From the IMG/VR virus record IMGVR_UViG_2534682164_000017: a stretch of 13,905 bases of DNA. One strand, 5' to 3'. Positions 2,113 through 8,792 of this stretch are shown here, piece after piece; the first letter of the stretch is position 1; every line of letters starts with the position of its first letter. Position numbers and translations under genes: made by a program. This DNA comes from a virus. Lineage: Duplodnaviria; Heunggongvirae; Uroviricota; Caudoviricetes. The notes below the pieces were generated by a model. That model did not search any database. It was not told the origin of the DNA and worked only from the letters and a program-made list of their open reading frames with translations.

Positions 2113-2188
2113 GGCCCTTTAGCTCAGTGGTTAGAGCAGGCGACTCATAATCGCTTGGTCGCTGGTTCAAGTCCAGCAAGGGCCACCA
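2113..2188 (+). tRNA. ileY: tRNA with CAU anticodon, most likely tRNA-Ile2 (lysidine-modified); elongator tRNA-Met not excluded
   Basis: A 76-nt cloverleaf folded by hand: acceptor GGCCCTT/AAGGGCC, D-stem GCTC/GAGC, anticodon stem GGCGA/TCGCT with loop CTCATAA (anticodon CAT), T-arm GCTGG-TTCAAGT-CCAGC, 3' ACCA. The sequence matches my recollection of E. coli ileX/ileY closely. Confidence 0.8.
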
Positions 2189-2513
2189 AATCATTATTTA
2201 CGTATCAGGAAGAGTTAAGGGTACAAGGGGTACTCGATGGCGGTCTATATTTCATGACTAACGCCATTTCAAGGAAGAAGTGCGGTGGGTGGTTTCGAAT
2301 GAGGGCTGGTGTTTTGGTACGTGGCACGCCACTGCAATGTATTTATCCATCAGTACTCATTCAAAAGTACCTGGAAAAAATGCCTGCTATGCCAAGCGGG
2401 CAAATTGCTTACATGTGGAATTAAGTAATTAACGATAAAGCCAGAGTATTATCATTTATTATACCCCTTCATTTAATCAGGTTAATTACTCAAATCACGG
2501 TAATGACTCCAAC

Positions 2514-3017
2514 TTATTGATAGTGTTTTATGTTCAGATAATGCCCGATGACTTTGTCATGCAGCTCCACCGATTTTGAGAACGACAGCGACTTCCGTCC
2601 CAGCCGTGCCAGGTGCTGCCTCAGATTCAGGTTATGCCGCTCAATTCGCTGCGTATATCGCTTGCTGATTACGTGCAGCTTTCCCTTCAGGCGGGATTCA
2701 TACAGCGGCCAGCCATCCGTCATCCATATCACCACGTCAAAGGGTGACAGCAGGCTCATAAGACGCCCCAGCGTCGCCATAGTGCGTTCACCGAATACGT
2801 GCGCAACAACCGTCTTCCGGAGACTGTCATACGCGTAAAACAGCCAGCGCTGGCGCGATTTAGCCCCGACATAGCCCCACTGTTCGTCCATTTCCGCGCA
2901 GACGATGACGTCACTGCCCGGCTGTATGCGCGAGGTTACCGACTGCGGCCTGAGTTTTTTAAGTGACGTAAAATCGTGTTGAGGCCAACGCCCATAATGC
3001 GTGCAGTTGCCCGGCAT
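2514..3017 (-). CDS. insB: IS1 InsB reading frame
   Basis: 167-aa translation identical to the copy A InsB frame; it overlaps insA in the -1 frame, as expected for IS1. Confidence 0.9.
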
Positions 3018-3211
3018 CCAACGCCATTCATGGCCATATCAATGATTTTCTGGTGCGTACCGGGTTGAGAAGCGGTGTAAGTGAACTGCAGTTGCCATGT
3101 TTTACGGCAGTGAGAGCAGAGATAGCGCTGATGTCCGGCAGTGCTTTTGCCGTTACGCACCACCCCGTCAGTAGCTGAACAGGAGGGACAGCTGATAGAA
3201 ACAGAAGCCAC
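2936..3211 (-). CDS. insA: IS1 InsA (transposition regulator and N-terminal part of the InsAB' transposase)
   Basis: 91-aa translation [42 protein letters not shown]...[12 protein letters not shown] with the zinc-finger-like C-x2-C...C-x2-C pattern. Confidence 0.9.
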
Positions 3212-3719
3212 TGGAGCACCTCAAAAACACCATCATACACTAAATCAGTAAGTTGGCAGCATCACCCAAATCACTGAACTATTCTCTGTTCGCTCACTGA
3301 TGATAAGTGAGTGTCACAACCACGATTTGTATGCGGGCCAATGCCGTAGAGTAAGGATGAAATGTCTCTGCCACGCCTTAAACATCTACTACTGACCAGA
3401 ATACCCGTCGCAGGTAGATGAGTCTTGTGAGCGTTACAGGAGTCTGGCTTTGCTCATTAATCAACGCTATTTAGATATAAATTTCTAACACTCGAAAAAC
3501 GAATTTCACTAATAAATTATAACGGGTGGTTTTTATCATACAGCGAAATAACTTTTTGTTTATTAAATTTAACATTCTTGTGCTAATTTAATTAAAAGTA
3601 CCATGTATAGCATATGAAGCTGTTAATGCCAGCAATTGTCTCAAATGAGCGATTTTTTATAGTGACAAACAATAATAAAATTAAAAATAGCCATGTAGAC
3701 ATTAACTGAGGAATAGACA

Positions 3720-5198
3720 ATGTTAGTTAGTAAAAGCAACGAATTTAACACTAGCTCATTTATAGATAGTGGAAATTGTAATGAAAGAAAATCTTCTGAA
3801 TCCATGGAGCTACTAGCTTATAGTATTATAAATTTAATTTGTAAGGAAGCTGCCTCAGGGACGTATCGCGGTGCTCTTGAAACTTTACAAAAAATGATGT
3901 CTGAATGTATATATCATGAAGGCAACGCCTTTGTCATTATGGGATCTGGAGAGCAATTAAAACGTATTAAATATGATGTTGATGAAAATAACTTAAAAGT
4001 ATTCAACGTATACTTTGATAATAATGAAGAGTTAGTTACTGATGGTGAGCCTGACGTAGTATGTTTAAGCAAGCAGGTCTGGGAAGATCTTCTCATTAAA
4101 CTAAAGCTGGAGAACAAAGAAAATGCGGTTTCTGAAACTGACCTGTCATCGAATAAAAATAATGTTGATCAGTTTATTGAATGCGCTAAGAGAAATGAAC
4201 AGACCCTATTCGATAATATAAGAAAAAGTGATTTTCATGTTGATTCATTTAAGCCAGGTAGTACACGTAGTGTTATTTTAGAAACACAACCAAATGTCTG
4301 TATGGAACCACATAATTTATATGACAACCAAATAGATAAGGTTTCACCTGTAACTAAAAACTCTCAGCAAGTTAAAGGCCACTATGGAGATAAATTTAAA
4401 GAAATGCAGATGTTCCTTAACCAGATGAGCAATGCACTTCAACAGACTCCATCTTTGTCAGAGTCAAAGGAACACACCATAGATATTCAAAAAATAACGG
4501 ATGCCTTTGTGAAAGAATTCCGGGGGGTATTAATTGATAAAAATGGGAATTGTTCAGAACGTTTATTCAATTTTTATGAGTGCTGCTATAAGTTTTTACC
4601 AAGAGCGCAGCCTCAAGATAAAATCGAAAGCTATAATTCAGCACTACAAGCTTTTTCCATCTTTCGTTCATCTACTTTGAATAATAATGATGTAGGGTTT
4701 AATTTTAAATTATTCCCAGAAGTCAAGCTGTCTGGTGAAAATCTTGAAACGGTATTCAAATACAAAAAAGGAAGTTTTGTCCGGGAGATAGCCAGAATTA
4801 ACATTACTCTCCAAAAAGAAGAGGATGGTTTATATAATTTAGGTGGATTGGATTTTAAGGGATGCTTCTTTTCTGGACAGAACTTCAGTAACTATGATAT
4901 TCAATATGTGAACTGGGGAACGTCATTGTTTGATCTTGATACTCCGTGTATTTTTAATGCGCCTGCTTACAACAAGAGTAATGAAAAATCATTAAAACCT
5001 GTGAGCGAAAACGGTTTAAGTGGAGTCTTGACTGATCGTAATAATAAAATAAAACTCATCACGGGCGTGGCACCATTCGATGATATTTTATTTATGGATG
5101 ATGACTTTGATGATAGTTCCTCTGAGGATGATCCCGTTGAGAATAGTCCTGTTGTGACTAGTCCCGTTGTATCAAGTTCTAAAAGCAGTTTTCAATGA
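3720..5198 (+). CDS. Hypothetical 492-aa protein, AT-rich orphan gene; pentapeptide-like repeats near the C-terminus and an acidic Ser/Asp-rich tail
   Basis: A long ORF with GGA at 3710-3712 and ATG at 3720. The gene is markedly AT-rich (about one third GC by eye, against roughly half for the flanking IS and phage DNA). The region GLDFKGCFFSGQNFSNYDIQYVNWGTSLFDLD looks like degenerate pentapeptide repeats. The tail reads DDILFMDDDFDDSSSEDDPVENSPVVTSPVV. No transmembrane segment or signal peptide is apparent. By position it could correspond to the ypjB/ypjC region of E. coli K-12; that is unverified. Confidence 0.7.
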   Translation: MLVSKSNEFNTSSFIDSGNCNERKSSESMELLAYSIINLICKEAASGTYRGALETLQKMMSECIYHEGNAFVIMGSGEQLKRIKYDVDENNLKVFNVYFDNNEELVTDGEPDVVCLSKQVWEDLLIKLKLENKENAVSETDLSSNKNNVDQFIECAKRNEQTLFDNIRKSDFHVDSFKPGSTRSVILETQPNVCMEPHNLYDNQIDKVSPVTKNSQQVKGHYGDKFKEMQMFLNQMSNALQQTPSLSESKEHTIDIQKITDAFVKEFRGVLIDKNGNCSERLFNFYECCYKFLPRAQPQDKIESYNSALQAFSIFRSSTLNNNDVGFNFKLFPEVKLSGENLETVFKYKKGSFVREIARINITLQKEEDGLYNLGGLDFKGCFFSGQNFSNYDIQYVNWGTSLFDLDTPCIFNAPAYNKSNEKSLKPVSENGLSGVLTDRNNKIKLITGVAPFDDILFMDDDFDDSSSEDDPVENSPVVTSPVVSSSKSSFQ

Positions 5199-5310
5199 TT
5201 AATAAATGGCTATTTTTACAAAGAGATAATAACGTAGATTGAAACAATATGTATTATTGATTGATTAAACGGGATTATTTTTTACACTACAACCATTTTG
5301 CTGCCACTAC

Positions 5311-5346
5311 CAAAGAAAAAGGGGCTACGCTTTCACGTAACCCCTT
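5311..5346 (-). terminator. Candidate intrinsic terminator reading on the minus strand
   Basis: Hairpin AAGGGGCTACG-CTTTCA-CGTAACCCCTT (5319-5346). On the minus strand it is followed by a T-rich run (the plus strand reads CAAAGAAAAA at 5311-5320). No U-run follows it on the plus strand. Confidence 0.4.
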
Positions 5347-5479
5347 GATCTGTGCTGTGATTTACTGAGTTTAAATTGGTGCTGTAATTGGTTGAAATAT
5401 TTCATCTAATGTCTGGTTCAACTTTCCTTAGCTGCCTGAAAGTTTTTTGATCTTACCCAGCAATAACAGCGTTACGGTG

Positions 5480-5770
5480 CACCACGCCTGACTGAAGAAC
5501 TGCGTGCTCAGGGTTACCTCTTCAACGTAAAACCGTGGCAGGAGGTCCGGACTGAAAAAACTGCTCAGGACATTATCGGCGGTGGACGCACGGGTAGTCT
5601 GTAAACCGCACCGACTGGGGCGCAGTATGTGGCATCTTGTCGTGCTGTTGGAGGAGCTGTGCAAACGTGGTATTAACTTTCGTGCTCTGGCCCAATCTAT
5701 ATTTGCCCAACAATGGGGGGACGAATGCTGTAAAAGTAAAAGAATCTGCGATCTCAAAGTTATTGTGTGA
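5480..5770 (+). pseudogene. pinH: Remnant of a Pin/Hin-family serine DNA invertase gene, degenerate and frameshifted
   Basis: Translation around 5590-5700 gives ...[37 protein letters not shown], resembling the Pin segment [36 protein letters not shown]. Homology decays on both sides and the frame is interrupted. Boundaries are approximate. Confidence 0.5.
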
Positions 5771-6108
5771 TTTTTATGTGAGCAGAAGATATTCATCAGA
5801 AACGATTATGTAAATCATTTTATTTTGCCGACGGCCTGATTGTCGAAAGAAAAGAATACGCCCGTATTTCCTGAATAGATTGACTTTTTTATCCAATCAC
5901 ACTTCAGCGCACTGTGTTTAAAAAATGCCTCTTTCTTATGTGGAACATCATCATTTCATCATGATGTCTTTGATGAGCGGTGAACACAATACACTTGCGC
6001 TGTCTCTTCAGGATGAACCCCCCGGTCTGGTGCCTGCGGGCTGATGTTGCAGCAGAGCTAAAGTCGCTTAAACGCTACTCAGTATTCACTTTTCAGAGGA
6101 TGAAATTT

Positions 6109-7488
6109 ATGAACAGGACCAGTCCCCATTATTGTCGCCGCTCAGTACTTTCCTTATTGATATCTGCCTTGATATATGCCCCGCCCGTGATGGCGGCCTT
6201 TACTACTAATGTTATTGGTGTGGTAAACGATGAGACTGTAGATGGCAACCAACGAGTAGATGAACGAGGTACAACAAATAACACTCATATTATCAACCAT
6301 GGCCAGCAGAGTGTTTATGGCGGAGTATCTAATGGAAGTCTTATTGAATCTGGTGGATATCAAGATGTTGGAAGGAATAACAATTATATGGGGCAGTCTA
6401 ATAATACAACCATTAACGGAGGAAGACAGACAATTCATGACGGGGGCATTTCCACCGGTACGATAATCGACAGTGGCAATCAGGACGTTTATACAGGTGG
6501 TATCAGCAATGGAACGACAATTAAGGGTGGTAATTCACACATAAGTGGGGGGACTGCGAATGGAACCATCATTGATGGTGGAGGGCAGACAGTAACAACT
6601 CAGGGGCATGTTGATGGTACAACGATAAATAAGTCCGGTTATCAGGACATCACGCAAGGAAGTATGGCAACGAACACAATCATAAATGGTGGACGACAGT
6701 ATGTTGAACAGAGCACAGTAGGAACAACCACCATTAAAAATGGCGGTGAGCAAAGAGTATATGAAAGCCATGCGCTGGACACGACGATTGAAGGTGGAAC
6801 TCAGTCTCTGAATAATAAGTCAACGGCAAAAAATACTCAGATCTATTCTGGTGGTACGCAAATTGTTGATTACACCAGCTCCTCGGATGTTATTGAAGTT
6901 TATTCCGGTGGCGTGCTTGATGTTAGTGGTGGTACGGCAACAAATGTTACCCAGCACGATGGTGCAATTTTAAAAACAAACACTAACGGTACGACGGTGA
7001 GCGGTACGAATAGTGAAGGTGCATTCTCCATCCACAATCACGTGGCAGACAATGTGTTGCTGGAAAACGGTGGTCATTTAGACATAAACGCATATGGTTC
7101 GGCAAATAAGACGATTATTAAAGATAAAGGAACAATGTCAGTTTTAACGAATGCTAAAGCTGATGCGACCCGAATAGATAACGGCGGGGTAATGGATGTT
7201 ACCAGAAACGCGACCAATACCATAATCAATGGTGGTACACAGAATATTAATAATCATGGTATTGCCACGGGTACCAATATCAACAGCGGAACACAAAATA
7301 TCAAGAGCGGCGGGAAAGCTGACACGACAAATATTTCCACCGGGAGCCGGCAGGTTGTTGAGAAAGATGGTACGGCAACTGGCAGCAATATTAGCGCCGG
7401 AGGCTCGCTGATTGTCTATACCGGCGGTATAGCACATGGGGTTAACCAGGAGACGGGCAGTGCTTTAGTTGCTAGACTGGCCCCCTGA
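6109..7488 (+). CDS. ypjA: AIDA/Ag43-type autotransporter adhesin, N-terminal signal peptide and passenger repeats only; 3' end (rest of passenger and beta-barrel) replaced by IS2
   Basis: AGGA at 6097-6100 and ATG at 6109. Extended autotransporter-type signal peptide MNRTSPHYCRRSVLSLLISALIYAPPVMA. Many approximately 19-residue repeats of the form T-x-I-x-x-GG-x-Q-x-V-x-x-GG-x-A-x-x-T. Native sequence ends at 7472; the ORF's last codons and stop (7486-7488) lie inside the IS2 terminal repeat. Symbol is from synteny recall (ileY, pin remnant, adhesin), unverified. Confidence 0.7.
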   Translation: MNRTSPHYCRRSVLSLLISALIYAPPVMAAFTTNVIGVVNDETVDGNQRVDERGTTNNTHIINHGQQSVYGGVSNGSLIESGGYQDVGRNNNYMGQSNNTTINGGRQTIHDGGISTGTIIDSGNQDVYTGGISNGTTIKGGNSHISGGTANGTIIDGGGQTVTTQGHVDGTTINKSGYQDITQGSMATNTIINGGRQYVEQSTVGTTTIKNGGEQRVYESHALDTTIEGGTQSLNNKSTAKNTQIYSGGTQIVDYTSSSDVIEVYSGGVLDVSGGTATNVTQHDGAILKTNTNGTTVSGTNSEGAFSIHNHVADNVLLENGGHLDINAYGSANKTIIKDKGTMSVLTNAKADATRIDNGGVMDVTRNATNTIINGGTQNINNHGIATGTNINSGTQNIKSGGKADTTNISTGSRQVVEKDGTATGSNISAGGSLIVYTGGIAHGVNQETGSALVARLAP

Positions 7489-7563
7489 ATCTCCAGACAA
7501 CCAGTATCACTTATTTAAGTGATAGTCTTAATACTAGTTTTTAGACTAGTCATTGGAGAGCAG

Positions 7564-7929
7564 ATGATTGATGTCTTAGGACCGGAGAAACGCAGACGGC
7601 GTACCACACAGGAAAAGATCGCAATTGTTCAGCAGAGCTTTGAACCGGGGATGACGGTCTCCCTCGTTGCCCGGCAACATGGTGTAGCAGCCAGCCAGTT
7701 ATTTCTCTGGCGTAAGCAATACCAGGAAGGAAGTCTTACTGCTGTGGCCGCCGGAGAACAGGTTGTTCCTGCCTCTGAACTTGCTGCCGCCATGAAGCAG
7801 ATTAAAGAACTCCAGCGCCTGCTCGGCAAGAAAACGATGGAAAATGAACTCCTCAAAGAAGCCGTTGAATATGGACGGGCAAAAAAGTGGATAGCGCACG
7901 CGCCCTTATTGCCCGGGGATGGGGAGTAA
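7564..7929 (+). CDS. insC: IS2 OrfA (InsC), helix-turn-helix transposition regulator
   Basis: 121-aa translation [56 protein letters not shown]... matches IS2 InsC as recalled. The ORF-track start at 7519 is an in-frame upstream extension. Confidence 0.9.
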
Positions 7930-8792
7930 GCTTAGTCAGCCGTTGTCTCCGGGTGTCGCGTGCGCAGTTGCACGTCATTCTCAGACGAACCGATGACTGG
8001 ATGGATGGCCGCCGCAGTCGTCACACTGATGATACGGATGTGCTTCTCCGTATACACCATGTTATCGGAGAGCTGCCCACGTATGGTTATCGTCGGGTAT
8101 GGGCGCTGCTTCGCAGACAGGCAGAACTTGATGGTATGCCTGCGATCAATGCCAAACGTGTTTACCGGATCATGCGCCAGAATGCGCTGTTGCTTGAGCG
8201 AAAACCTGCTGTACCGCCATCGAAACGGGCACATACAGGCAGAGTGGCTGTGAAAGAAAGTAATCAGCGATGGTGCTCTGACGGGTTCGAGTTCCGCTGT
8301 GATAACGGAGAAAAACTGCGAGTCACGTTCGCGCTGGACTGCTGTGACCGTGAGGCACTGCACTGGGCGGTCACTACGGGCGGCTTCAACAGTGAAACAG
8401 TACAGGACGTCATGCTGGGAGCGGTGGAACGCCGCTTCGGCAACGAGCTTCCGGCGTCTCCAGTAGAGTGGCTGACGGATAATGGTTCATGCTACCGGGC
8501 TAATGAAACACGGCAGTTTGCCCGGATGTTGGGGCTTGAACCGAAGAGCACGGCGGTGCGGAGTCCGGAGAGTAACGGCATAGCAGAGAGCTCCGTGAAA
8601 ACGATAAAGCGTGACTACTTCAGTGTCATGCCCAAACCAGACGGGTTAACGGCAGCAAAGAACCTTGCAGAGGCGTTCGAGCATTATAACGAATGGCATC
8701 CGCATAGTGCACTGGGTTATCGCTCGCCACGGGAATATCTACGGCAGCAAGCCAGTAATGGGTTAAGTGATAACAGGTGTCTGGAAATATAG
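7887..8792 (+). CDS. insD: IS2 OrfB (InsD), DDE transposase catalytic reading frame
   Basis: 301-aa translation [34 protein letters not shown]...[14 protein letters not shown]..., with the IS3-family integrase-like core. It overlaps insC in the -1 frame. Confidence 0.9.

Follow-up and report, generated by a model that had tools for sequence, protein, structure and literature searches.

The closest described counterparts of the gene considered here are ypjC and ypjB of Escherichia coli K-12, which are the pieces of a single pseudogene (b2650 and b2649). The gene is already catalogued, and the families that cover it (DUF5507 and DUF5508 in Pfam and NF050179, the 'YpjCB family protein', in NCBIfam) carry no known function. 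The stretch of DNA analysed (the window; 13,905 nucleotides, IMG/VR record IMGVR_UViG_2534682164_000017) contains an ATG-initiated open reading frame (ORF) of 492 codons followed by a TGA stop at positions 3720–5198 of the plus strand, the sole long ORF of an AT-rich stretch. This ORF is very probably the intact, full-length allele of ypjCB, a horizontally acquired chromosomal gene of E. coli and Shigella that is fixed beside tRNA-ileY and is seen here in Shigella sonnei.

The encoded protein scores 983.4 bits against NF050179 (cut-off 650), with residues 1–484 aligned to model positions 1–465, and matches DUF5507 over residues 1–160 (279.5 bits) and DUF5508 over residues 234–492 (517.6 bits), both within one uninterrupted 492-codon ORF. 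A first-pass annotation, made from the letters of the window alone, had placed the protein in no known family. The profile matches overturn that claim: as far as databases are concerned the protein is no orphan, the confident match being to the uncharacterised YpjCB family. An identical protein is present on 262 S. sonnei contigs, and the 90% identity cluster, of 763 members, is named S. sonnei. The window allele is ∼100% identical to the S. sonnei entries and shows 86–92% protein identity to the E. coli alleles listed.

The same annotation had suggested that the ORF might be the intact form of a gene fragmented in K-12, and here it was right. The MG1655 copy has a TAA at codon 161 and an in-frame 105-nucleotide (nt) deletion that removes residues 207–241, whereas the window allele is intact; what remains in MG1655 is two ORFs of exactly 160 (YpjC) and 263 (YpjB) residues, located at 3001–3483 and 3583–4374 of the extracted K-12 locus (L006). 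The Pfam models PF17612 (DUF5507, 160 positions) and PF17621 (DUF5508, 263 positions) have exactly these lengths. The boundaries of the two families are thus a pseudogene artefact and delimit the halves of one broken gene, not structural domains, and linker residues 161–233 of the intact alleles are hidden by the two models. The 105-nt deletion is shared by the K-12/O157 lineage. The O157:H7 gene is an intact 449-residue form, found on over 700 contigs from the O157/O55 lineage, and the window allele is the longest form. Intact homologues are present in many strains.

Met1 rather than the conserved Met29 is the start of ypjCB, because a GAGGA Shine–Dalgarno sequence (3708–3712), 7 nt 5′ of the first ATG, is unchanged and codons 1–28 are open in all 16 alleles compared. 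Met29 was rejected as the start on the same two grounds. The guanine–cytosine (GC) fraction drops to 0.30–0.36 over ∼3400–5400, compared with 0.45–0.57 on either flank. The coding sequence itself has a GC fraction of 0.345 and a third-position value of 0.29, compared with third-position values of 0.65 for an IS1 transposase ORF and 0.55 for a prophage helicase ORF in the same window. The first description of an AT-rich gene unlike its surroundings is thus borne out (∼34% GC between flanks of 45–57%), and its composition supports the view that the gene is foreign.

The position of ypjCB is that of an old resident. The order ygaQ–ileY–ypjCB–serine-recombinase remnant–small ORF–ypjA (an autotransporter gene) is found in 14 of 14 annotated E. 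coli loci, and the window keeps the order ileY–ypjCB–recombinase remnant–ypjA. The adjoining tRNA gene noticed earlier is ileY (2113–2188, plus strand; anticodon CAT, called Met by ARAGORN and tRNA-Ile by RefSeq), the conserved upstream neighbour, and the conserved downstream neighbour is the remnant of a serine recombinase (pinH) gene at 5534–5701 (plus strand; coordinates moved by offset from another locus, L018). A copy of the insertion sequence (IS) IS1 at 2499–3266 (minus strand) begins ∼302 nt past ileY and ends 453 nt before the ypjCB ATG, inside the native ∼755-nt spacer, and is missing from the 15 loci of E. coli and S. flexneri compared with it; it is a later, secondary Shigella insertion and distinguishes the S. 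sonnei copy from the other loci of the family. As the gene order is native in E. coli and the IS1 came later, ypjCB is not a piece of cargo lying between an IS and a recombinase, which is how its place 'alone' between the two had first been read. What had been described as a 450-bp AT-rich leader (3267–3719, plus strand, 453 nt) is AT-rich, with a GC fraction of 0.35 that falls to 0.28 in the last 280 nt, but it is merely the native spacer left 3′ of IS1 and shares 91.6% identity with its K-12 counterpart. No Rfam match was found in the ileY–ypjCB spacer. Thus, ypjCB is an old, fixed resident of the ileY site, the neighbourhood of which has since been riddled with IS elements in S. sonnei.

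In its regulation ypjCB is best compared with xenogeneic genes silenced by H-NS, which it resembles in its ∼34% GC in a genome of ∼50% and in the binding of H-NS and Hha to its K-12 promoter region. Genomic SELEX (systematic evolution of ligands by exponential enrichment) showed that the K-12 ileY–ypjC spacer contains a site for the RpoD holoenzyme and one for H-NS (PMC3946193). Hha, a partner of H-NS, was enriched 4.6-fold at K-12 ypjC, and ypjC mRNA showed a ninefold change by reverse-transcription PCR (PMC2408971). The first-pass idea of an H-NS-silenced gene thus finds support in the orthologous K-12 spacer and in the AT-rich composition. By extension from K-12, the AT-rich promoter region of the S. 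sonnei gene would also be bound by both proteins, and since it is so bound in K-12 the gene would probably show no more than weak expression, if any, during standard growth. Despite the S. sonnei IS1 the spacer still has its proximal 453 nt; the element could supply outward transcription or interrupt the spreading of H-NS at ypjCB. A σ70-like site lies in this residual spacer at 3636–3663 (plus strand), and the published K-12 promoter hexamers (TTATCA-18-TTTAAT) are absent from both the window and the K-12 locus retrieved for comparison.

DNA matching ypjCB is present in 3075 of 5426 complete E. coli genomes, in every case in the chromosome and mostly at 90–95% identity. The placements number 3091 on chromosomes and none on plasmids in this genome set; with a fixed locus and no phage matches, this speaks against the proposal that the gene is currently mobile cargo. 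An exhaustive phmmer search of 1.84 billion representative proteins (50% identity clusters) returned one full-length cluster, the remainder being fragments at ≥55% identity. When GTDB was scanned with each species represented by one genome, the matches were only E. coli, S. flexneri and one metagenome-assembled contig labelled Planococcaceae, which is presumably contamination. The family is thus confined to E. coli and Shigella. Matches on plasmids are mislabelled chromosomes and one captured fragment of 354 nt, which lies at 6001–6354 of the extracted locus (L019) of the 245-kb conjugative IncHI2 plasmid NZ_MN732922.1, where no genes are listed. This fragment, a 61% identity match, was considered as a divergent paralogue and rejected as such: it is an internal piece of a K-12-type allele (residues 168–320 with the 35-residue deletion) that a mobile element presumably picked up from a chromosome.

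A tRNA-linked hot spot could also harbour a component of an anti-phage or other conflict system. Adjacency to a tRNA gene, rapid diversification with presence/absence polymorphism and a Pycsar system a few kilobases past ypjA in one E. coli strain fit such a role, as does a full-length match in PHROGs (phrog_30093, function unknown), although that entry probably derives from a mis-bounded prophage. However, no defence family in PADLOC-DB 2.0 matched YpjCB at E ≤ 1, a tblastn search of 50,697 phage records was negative, ypjCB is a single gene with no recognizable sensor or effector domain, and its position is fixed and not part of the variable cargo. We consider an anti-phage function very unlikely. 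A phage origin of the gene was likewise rejected on the tblastn result.

AlphaFold models were built from a shallow family alignment, with a mean pLDDT (predicted local distance difference test score) of 41.9 for the full-length protein and 54.7 for a C-terminal crop; all of the segments below are encoded on the plus strand. Residues 1–28 (3720–3803) form a polar, Ser/Asn/Thr-rich N-terminus that has no hydrophobic stretch and is predicted to be disordered; residues 1–30 contain 27% Ser and 13% Asn, and residues 1–28 are hypervariable between alleles, with the frame always open. An α/β module of two helices, five strands and one helix is predicted for residues 29–135 (3804–4124; pLDDT 35–53), followed by a predicted disordered linker at residues 136–220 (4125–4379; pLDDT ∼20–25) that is a hot spot of in-frame insertions and deletions (indels) and the site of most of the inactivating lesions of other strains. 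Four helices are predicted for residues 221–321 (4380–4682; pLDDT 35–67) and a three-stranded antiparallel β-meander for residues 329–363 (4704–4808; pLDDT 67–83). Only residues 330–415 reach a pLDDT of 67–83, and residues 414–492 are predicted to be disordered. No membrane span or signal peptide is predicted in YpjCB, the highest Kyte–Doolittle mean over 19 residues being 0.89.

The acidic, Ser-rich C-terminal tail pointed out in the first-pass annotation is present: residues 453–492 (5076–5195), predicted to be disordered, consist of an acidic/aromatic cluster, FDDILFMDDDFDDSSSEDD, followed by a Ser/Pro/Val-rich end, with 11 Asp and Glu and ten Ser residues in all, and many alleles end eight residues sooner. 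Within it, the acidic/aromatic peptide PFDDILFMDDDFDDSSSEDD (residues 453–472; 5076–5135) is invariant and is internal, not C-terminal. This peptide recalls the C-terminal tip of the single-stranded DNA-binding protein SSB (MDFDDDIPF) and casein kinase 2-type SxxD/E sites. A Foldseek search with the low-confidence full-length model gave recurrent single-stranded DNA-binding folds of the PC4/Sub1/PUR type (1pcf, 6ycs, 4usg, 8chu, 4bg7, 5a4n and 5zg9), which are not significant (E = 0.08–0.4); by topology these were assigned to the predicted strands-plus-helix module of the N-terminal part (residues 65–135; 3912–4124). With a profile, the only match among PDB sequences was a chance one (E = 0.86), and a PDB sequence search with a fragment gave antibody V-domains at E > 0.1, judged to be chance, and a Qnr line at E = 3.9.

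The protein contains a run of seven pentapeptide-like units, x-[D/N]-[hydrophobic]-x-x, at residues 372–406 (4833–4937), with the register YNLGG, LDFKG, CFFSG, QNFSN, YDIQY, VNWGT, SLFDL. All seven central residues are hydrophobic (L/F/I/W/M/V) and five of the seven preceding residues are Asp or Asn; six of 20,000 shuffles of the protein score equally, by a statistic chosen after the run had been noticed. In the AlphaFold model a strand recurs every five residues over residues 366–410, with a pLDDT of 70–83 in the run. However, in PF00805, the pentapeptide-repeat family, the full protein has no match at E ≤ 1 and a 63-residue fragment reaches 12.4 bits (E = 0.12), short of the 20.2 required, and fold searches with the models found no pentapeptide protein, solved β-helix, PipB2, NleL/EspX or Qnr among the matches. 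Of the pentapeptide-like repeats first claimed, the non-random run therefore stands, and the structure prediction agrees with a strand per pentad, but family membership and a match to a solved pentapeptide β-helix do not. The run is real and looks like less than two coils of a β-helix.

The family otherwise most similar in this respect is PF00805, with PipB2, EspX/NleL and Qnr/MfpA among its members. Seven consecutive units of YpjCB fit the x-[D/N]-[L/F]-x-x pattern of these proteins, and YpjCB differs from them in its sub-threshold score, in its fewer than two coils and in the remaining protein, which has no counterpart there. Qnr and MfpA form dimers in which the rods have roughly eight to ten coils and account for almost all of the protein. 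A DNA-mimicking pentapeptide protein of this type, protecting or inhibiting gyrase or another DNA-binding enzyme, might be suspected from the pentapeptide-like periodicity, the acidic tail and the weak Qnr line of the PDB sequence search. Seven pentads, however, amount to only ∼1.75 coils and 35 of 492 residues (less than 10% of the protein), and the PF00805 score is below threshold, making a DNA mimic extremely improbable.

Full-length YpjCB alleles differ by up to 19% in protein sequence within the species. The 16 DNA alleles record at least 48 recombination events (Hudson–Kaplan Rm, 210 informative sites) and are recombinant mosaics; as the non-coding flanks are also only 91–97% identical, the ileY–ypjA block as a whole is a diverse recombining region. 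The ratio of nonsynonymous to synonymous substitution rates (dN/dS) varies along the protein. It is lowest in residues 371–412 (0.37; dN 0.032), the most conserved segment, which holds the pentad run, and is 0.46 in residues 36–135, 0.44 in residues 242–330, 0.55 in residues 331–370 and 0.51 in residues 413–452, compared with 0.94 in residues 1–35, 1.18 in residues 136–206 and 1.34 in residues 453–484. The predicted folded segments are thus under moderate purifying selection (0.37–0.55) and the predicted disordered segments under none (0.94–1.34). Open frames of 449–492 codons have been retained over ∼10% DNA divergence, and every indel of the intact alleles is in-frame overall. When random substitution was simulated between divergent intact alleles (143–159 differences, with the observed transition fraction), the frame stayed open in only 0.08–0.66% of cases; the ORF has therefore been maintained by selection.

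Inactivating lesions have nevertheless arisen repeatedly. Q119* occurs in two strains (L011 and L013), Q161* in K-12, 55989, S. flexneri and SBF22 (L006, L008, L005 and L011) and Q235* in VREC0864 and O121 (L001 and L017), while the PM4-5 gene has a frameshift at nt 609. The three independent nonsense lesions (codons 119, 161 and 235) are all CAG-to-TAG changes, the K-12 codon being TAA, and SBF22 carries two of them. Second hits, 1-nt deletions on top of the shared codon 161 stop, are found at nt 773 in 55989 and nt 804 in S. flexneri. Thus, ypjCB is a real and long-maintained gene, yet one that is dispensable and readily lost, repeatedly and independently.

As to its function, we tentatively propose that YpjCB is a non-enzymatic binding protein with a niche-specific role. 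No catalytic motif and no enzyme, defence or phage family was detected in searches of Pfam, NCBIfam, PDB sequences, PADLOC and phage records, and the best-conserved features are the surface of the predicted coil and the acidic/aromatic peptide. For these reasons YpjCB would act by binding another macromolecule rather than by catalysis, with the conserved short β-coil surface and the acidic/aromatic peptide contacting the partner, and its niche-specific role would be one that many lineages can lose.

Several points weigh against this view of the gene. The step from the failure to find motifs to binding rather than catalysis is an argument from negative evidence, and with both AlphaFold models of low confidence the domain picture is tentative. 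Pairwise dN/dS values of the intact alleles are high (0.40–0.98 by the Nei–Gojobori method, reaching ∼1.0 in some pairs) and the coding sequence is about as divergent as the non-coding flanks, so that constraint is weak; at least five independent lesions have made pseudogenes of eight of the 16 loci sampled. In S. sonnei, regulation may have been altered by the IS1 that lies 453 nt upstream. The literature search found no paper characterizing the YpjCB protein, and the only published phenotype found is that of a deletion of the truncated K-12 ypjC fragment: removal of this 160-residue stump led to more pathogen colonization of K-12 biofilms, and constitutive expression of ypjC produced no significant change in colonization (PMC3646849).

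The same divergence, dN/dS and pseudogene data, some loci carrying two lesions, are what would be expected of a relic in decay, a gene that came with an old ileY island, was once functional and is now drifting to loss, with the S. sonnei copy simply not yet hit. The frequent breakage of neighbouring genes (the recombinase remnant, ypjA and ygaQ) fits such a history, and S. sonnei is a recent clone, in which an intact copy says little. Against decay stand the frames kept open over ∼10% divergence (P = 0.001–0.007 under random substitution), the segment-wise difference in dN/dS between predicted folded and disordered regions, the in-frame indels of the intact alleles and the wide occurrence of the intact O157/O55-lineage allele. 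This is the main rival explanation; weakened by the frame-maintenance test and the segment-wise constraint, it is doubtful but must be considered a serious possibility.

A further candidate role is that of an effector of type III secretion systems (T3SSs), exported by the system of the locus of enterocyte effacement (LEE), by E. coli T3SS 2 (ETT2) or by Mxi-Spa, with the polar N-terminus as the signal and the coil and tail acting in the host in the manner of PipB2 or EspX. Low GC is found in many effector genes, a short pentapeptide-like run is present, and evolution that is fast and mosaic, with repeated loss, would suit a gene that interacts with the host. The first 28 residues vary in sequence but keep their Ser/Asn/Thr-rich composition and lack a Sec signal, which is compatible with secretion but not diagnostic, as AT-rich codons by themselves yield Ser/Asn richness. 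S. sonnei and O157:H7, in both of which ypjCB is intact, carry type III systems. Intactness does not, however, track the T3SS status of the pathotypes sampled: the gene is a pseudogene in S. flexneri and in the LEE-positive O121, and isolates from urine, dog, wastewater and cheese have it intact. Neither sequence nor fold similarity to an effector family was found in Pfam, NCBIfam, PDB sequence or fold searches, and no secretion-system, chaperone or other effector gene adjoins ypjCB, its neighbours being ileY, IS1, the recombinase remnant and ypjA. An effector is therefore unlikely.

More broadly, YpjCB could be a lineage-specific new fold engaged in an antagonistic interaction, whether it is secreted or translocated or belongs to a conflict system, although this too is improbable. 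If it were so, the protein diversity of up to 19%, the mosaic recombination and the repeated loss would reflect an arms race and not decay, and the interaction would take place on the short β-coil and the acidic/aromatic tail.

The surroundings of ypjCB in the window are heavily rearranged. Three IS1 copies lie within 2.8 kb (526–1293, 1302–2068 and 2499–3266); the first two have the same orientation, are 8 nt apart and replace most of ygaQ, of which positions 1–525 are a remnant, and the third is reversed. For the middle copy, no full-length InsB is among the ORFs listed. On the other side, the autotransporter gene ypjA/ehaD (AIDA repeats; 5980–7488) is interrupted at ∼7472 by an IS3-family element (7519–8792) with an HTH_Tnp_1 ORF at 7519–7929 and an rve ORF at 7887–8792. 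With ygaQ and ypjA both disrupted by IS elements, the S. sonnei ypjCB is intact between two destroyed neighbours. Across the loci, ypjCB and ypjA are both intact in five cases, discordant in three and two and both broken in five, numbers too small and too confounded by phylogeny to carry any meaning.

Past the IS3-family element, a lambdoid prophage remnant (8767–12842) is joined to the ypjA stump. It encodes a DnaB-like helicase (8767–10299), RusA (10553–10924), antiterminator Q (10893–11300) and an ORF6N-domain protein (11583–12344), and has Rfam matches to c4-a1b1/isrK/C4 antisense RNA/sRNA-Xcc1 at 11328–11743 and a tRNA cluster (Met-CAT, Arg-TCT, Thr-TGT and Gly-TCC) at 12532–12842. In E. 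coli VREC0864 a Pycsar system (effector and cyclase; L001, 14708–16589) lies just past ypjA; upstream of ygaQ the strain has type IV secretion genes and an IS110-family element. These three features indicate that the wider ileY region is a variable hot spot, although ypjCB itself is fixed.

Current understanding is not changed by these results, and ypjCB is best described as a known unknown that has been tidied up. What is added is the intact form of the gene, the recognition that the K-12 genes and the Pfam families are its broken halves, its confinement to E. coli and Shigella, and the selection acting on its predicted folded modules and coil. The gene belongs to the uncharacterized 'y-ome' of the best-studied bacterium, and over half of the complete E. 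coli genomes carry it; widespread as it is, it has no detectable relative among the 1.84 billion representative proteins. Because the K-12 ypjC and ypjB annotations and the two Pfam families describe broken halves, functional work needs an intact allele, for which those of S. sonnei or O157:H7 are suited, and the K-12 ypjC knockout phenotypes that have been reported relate to a 160-residue stump. Mutagenesis is best aimed at the places where selection acts, namely the segments predicted to be folded and the coil of seven pentads.

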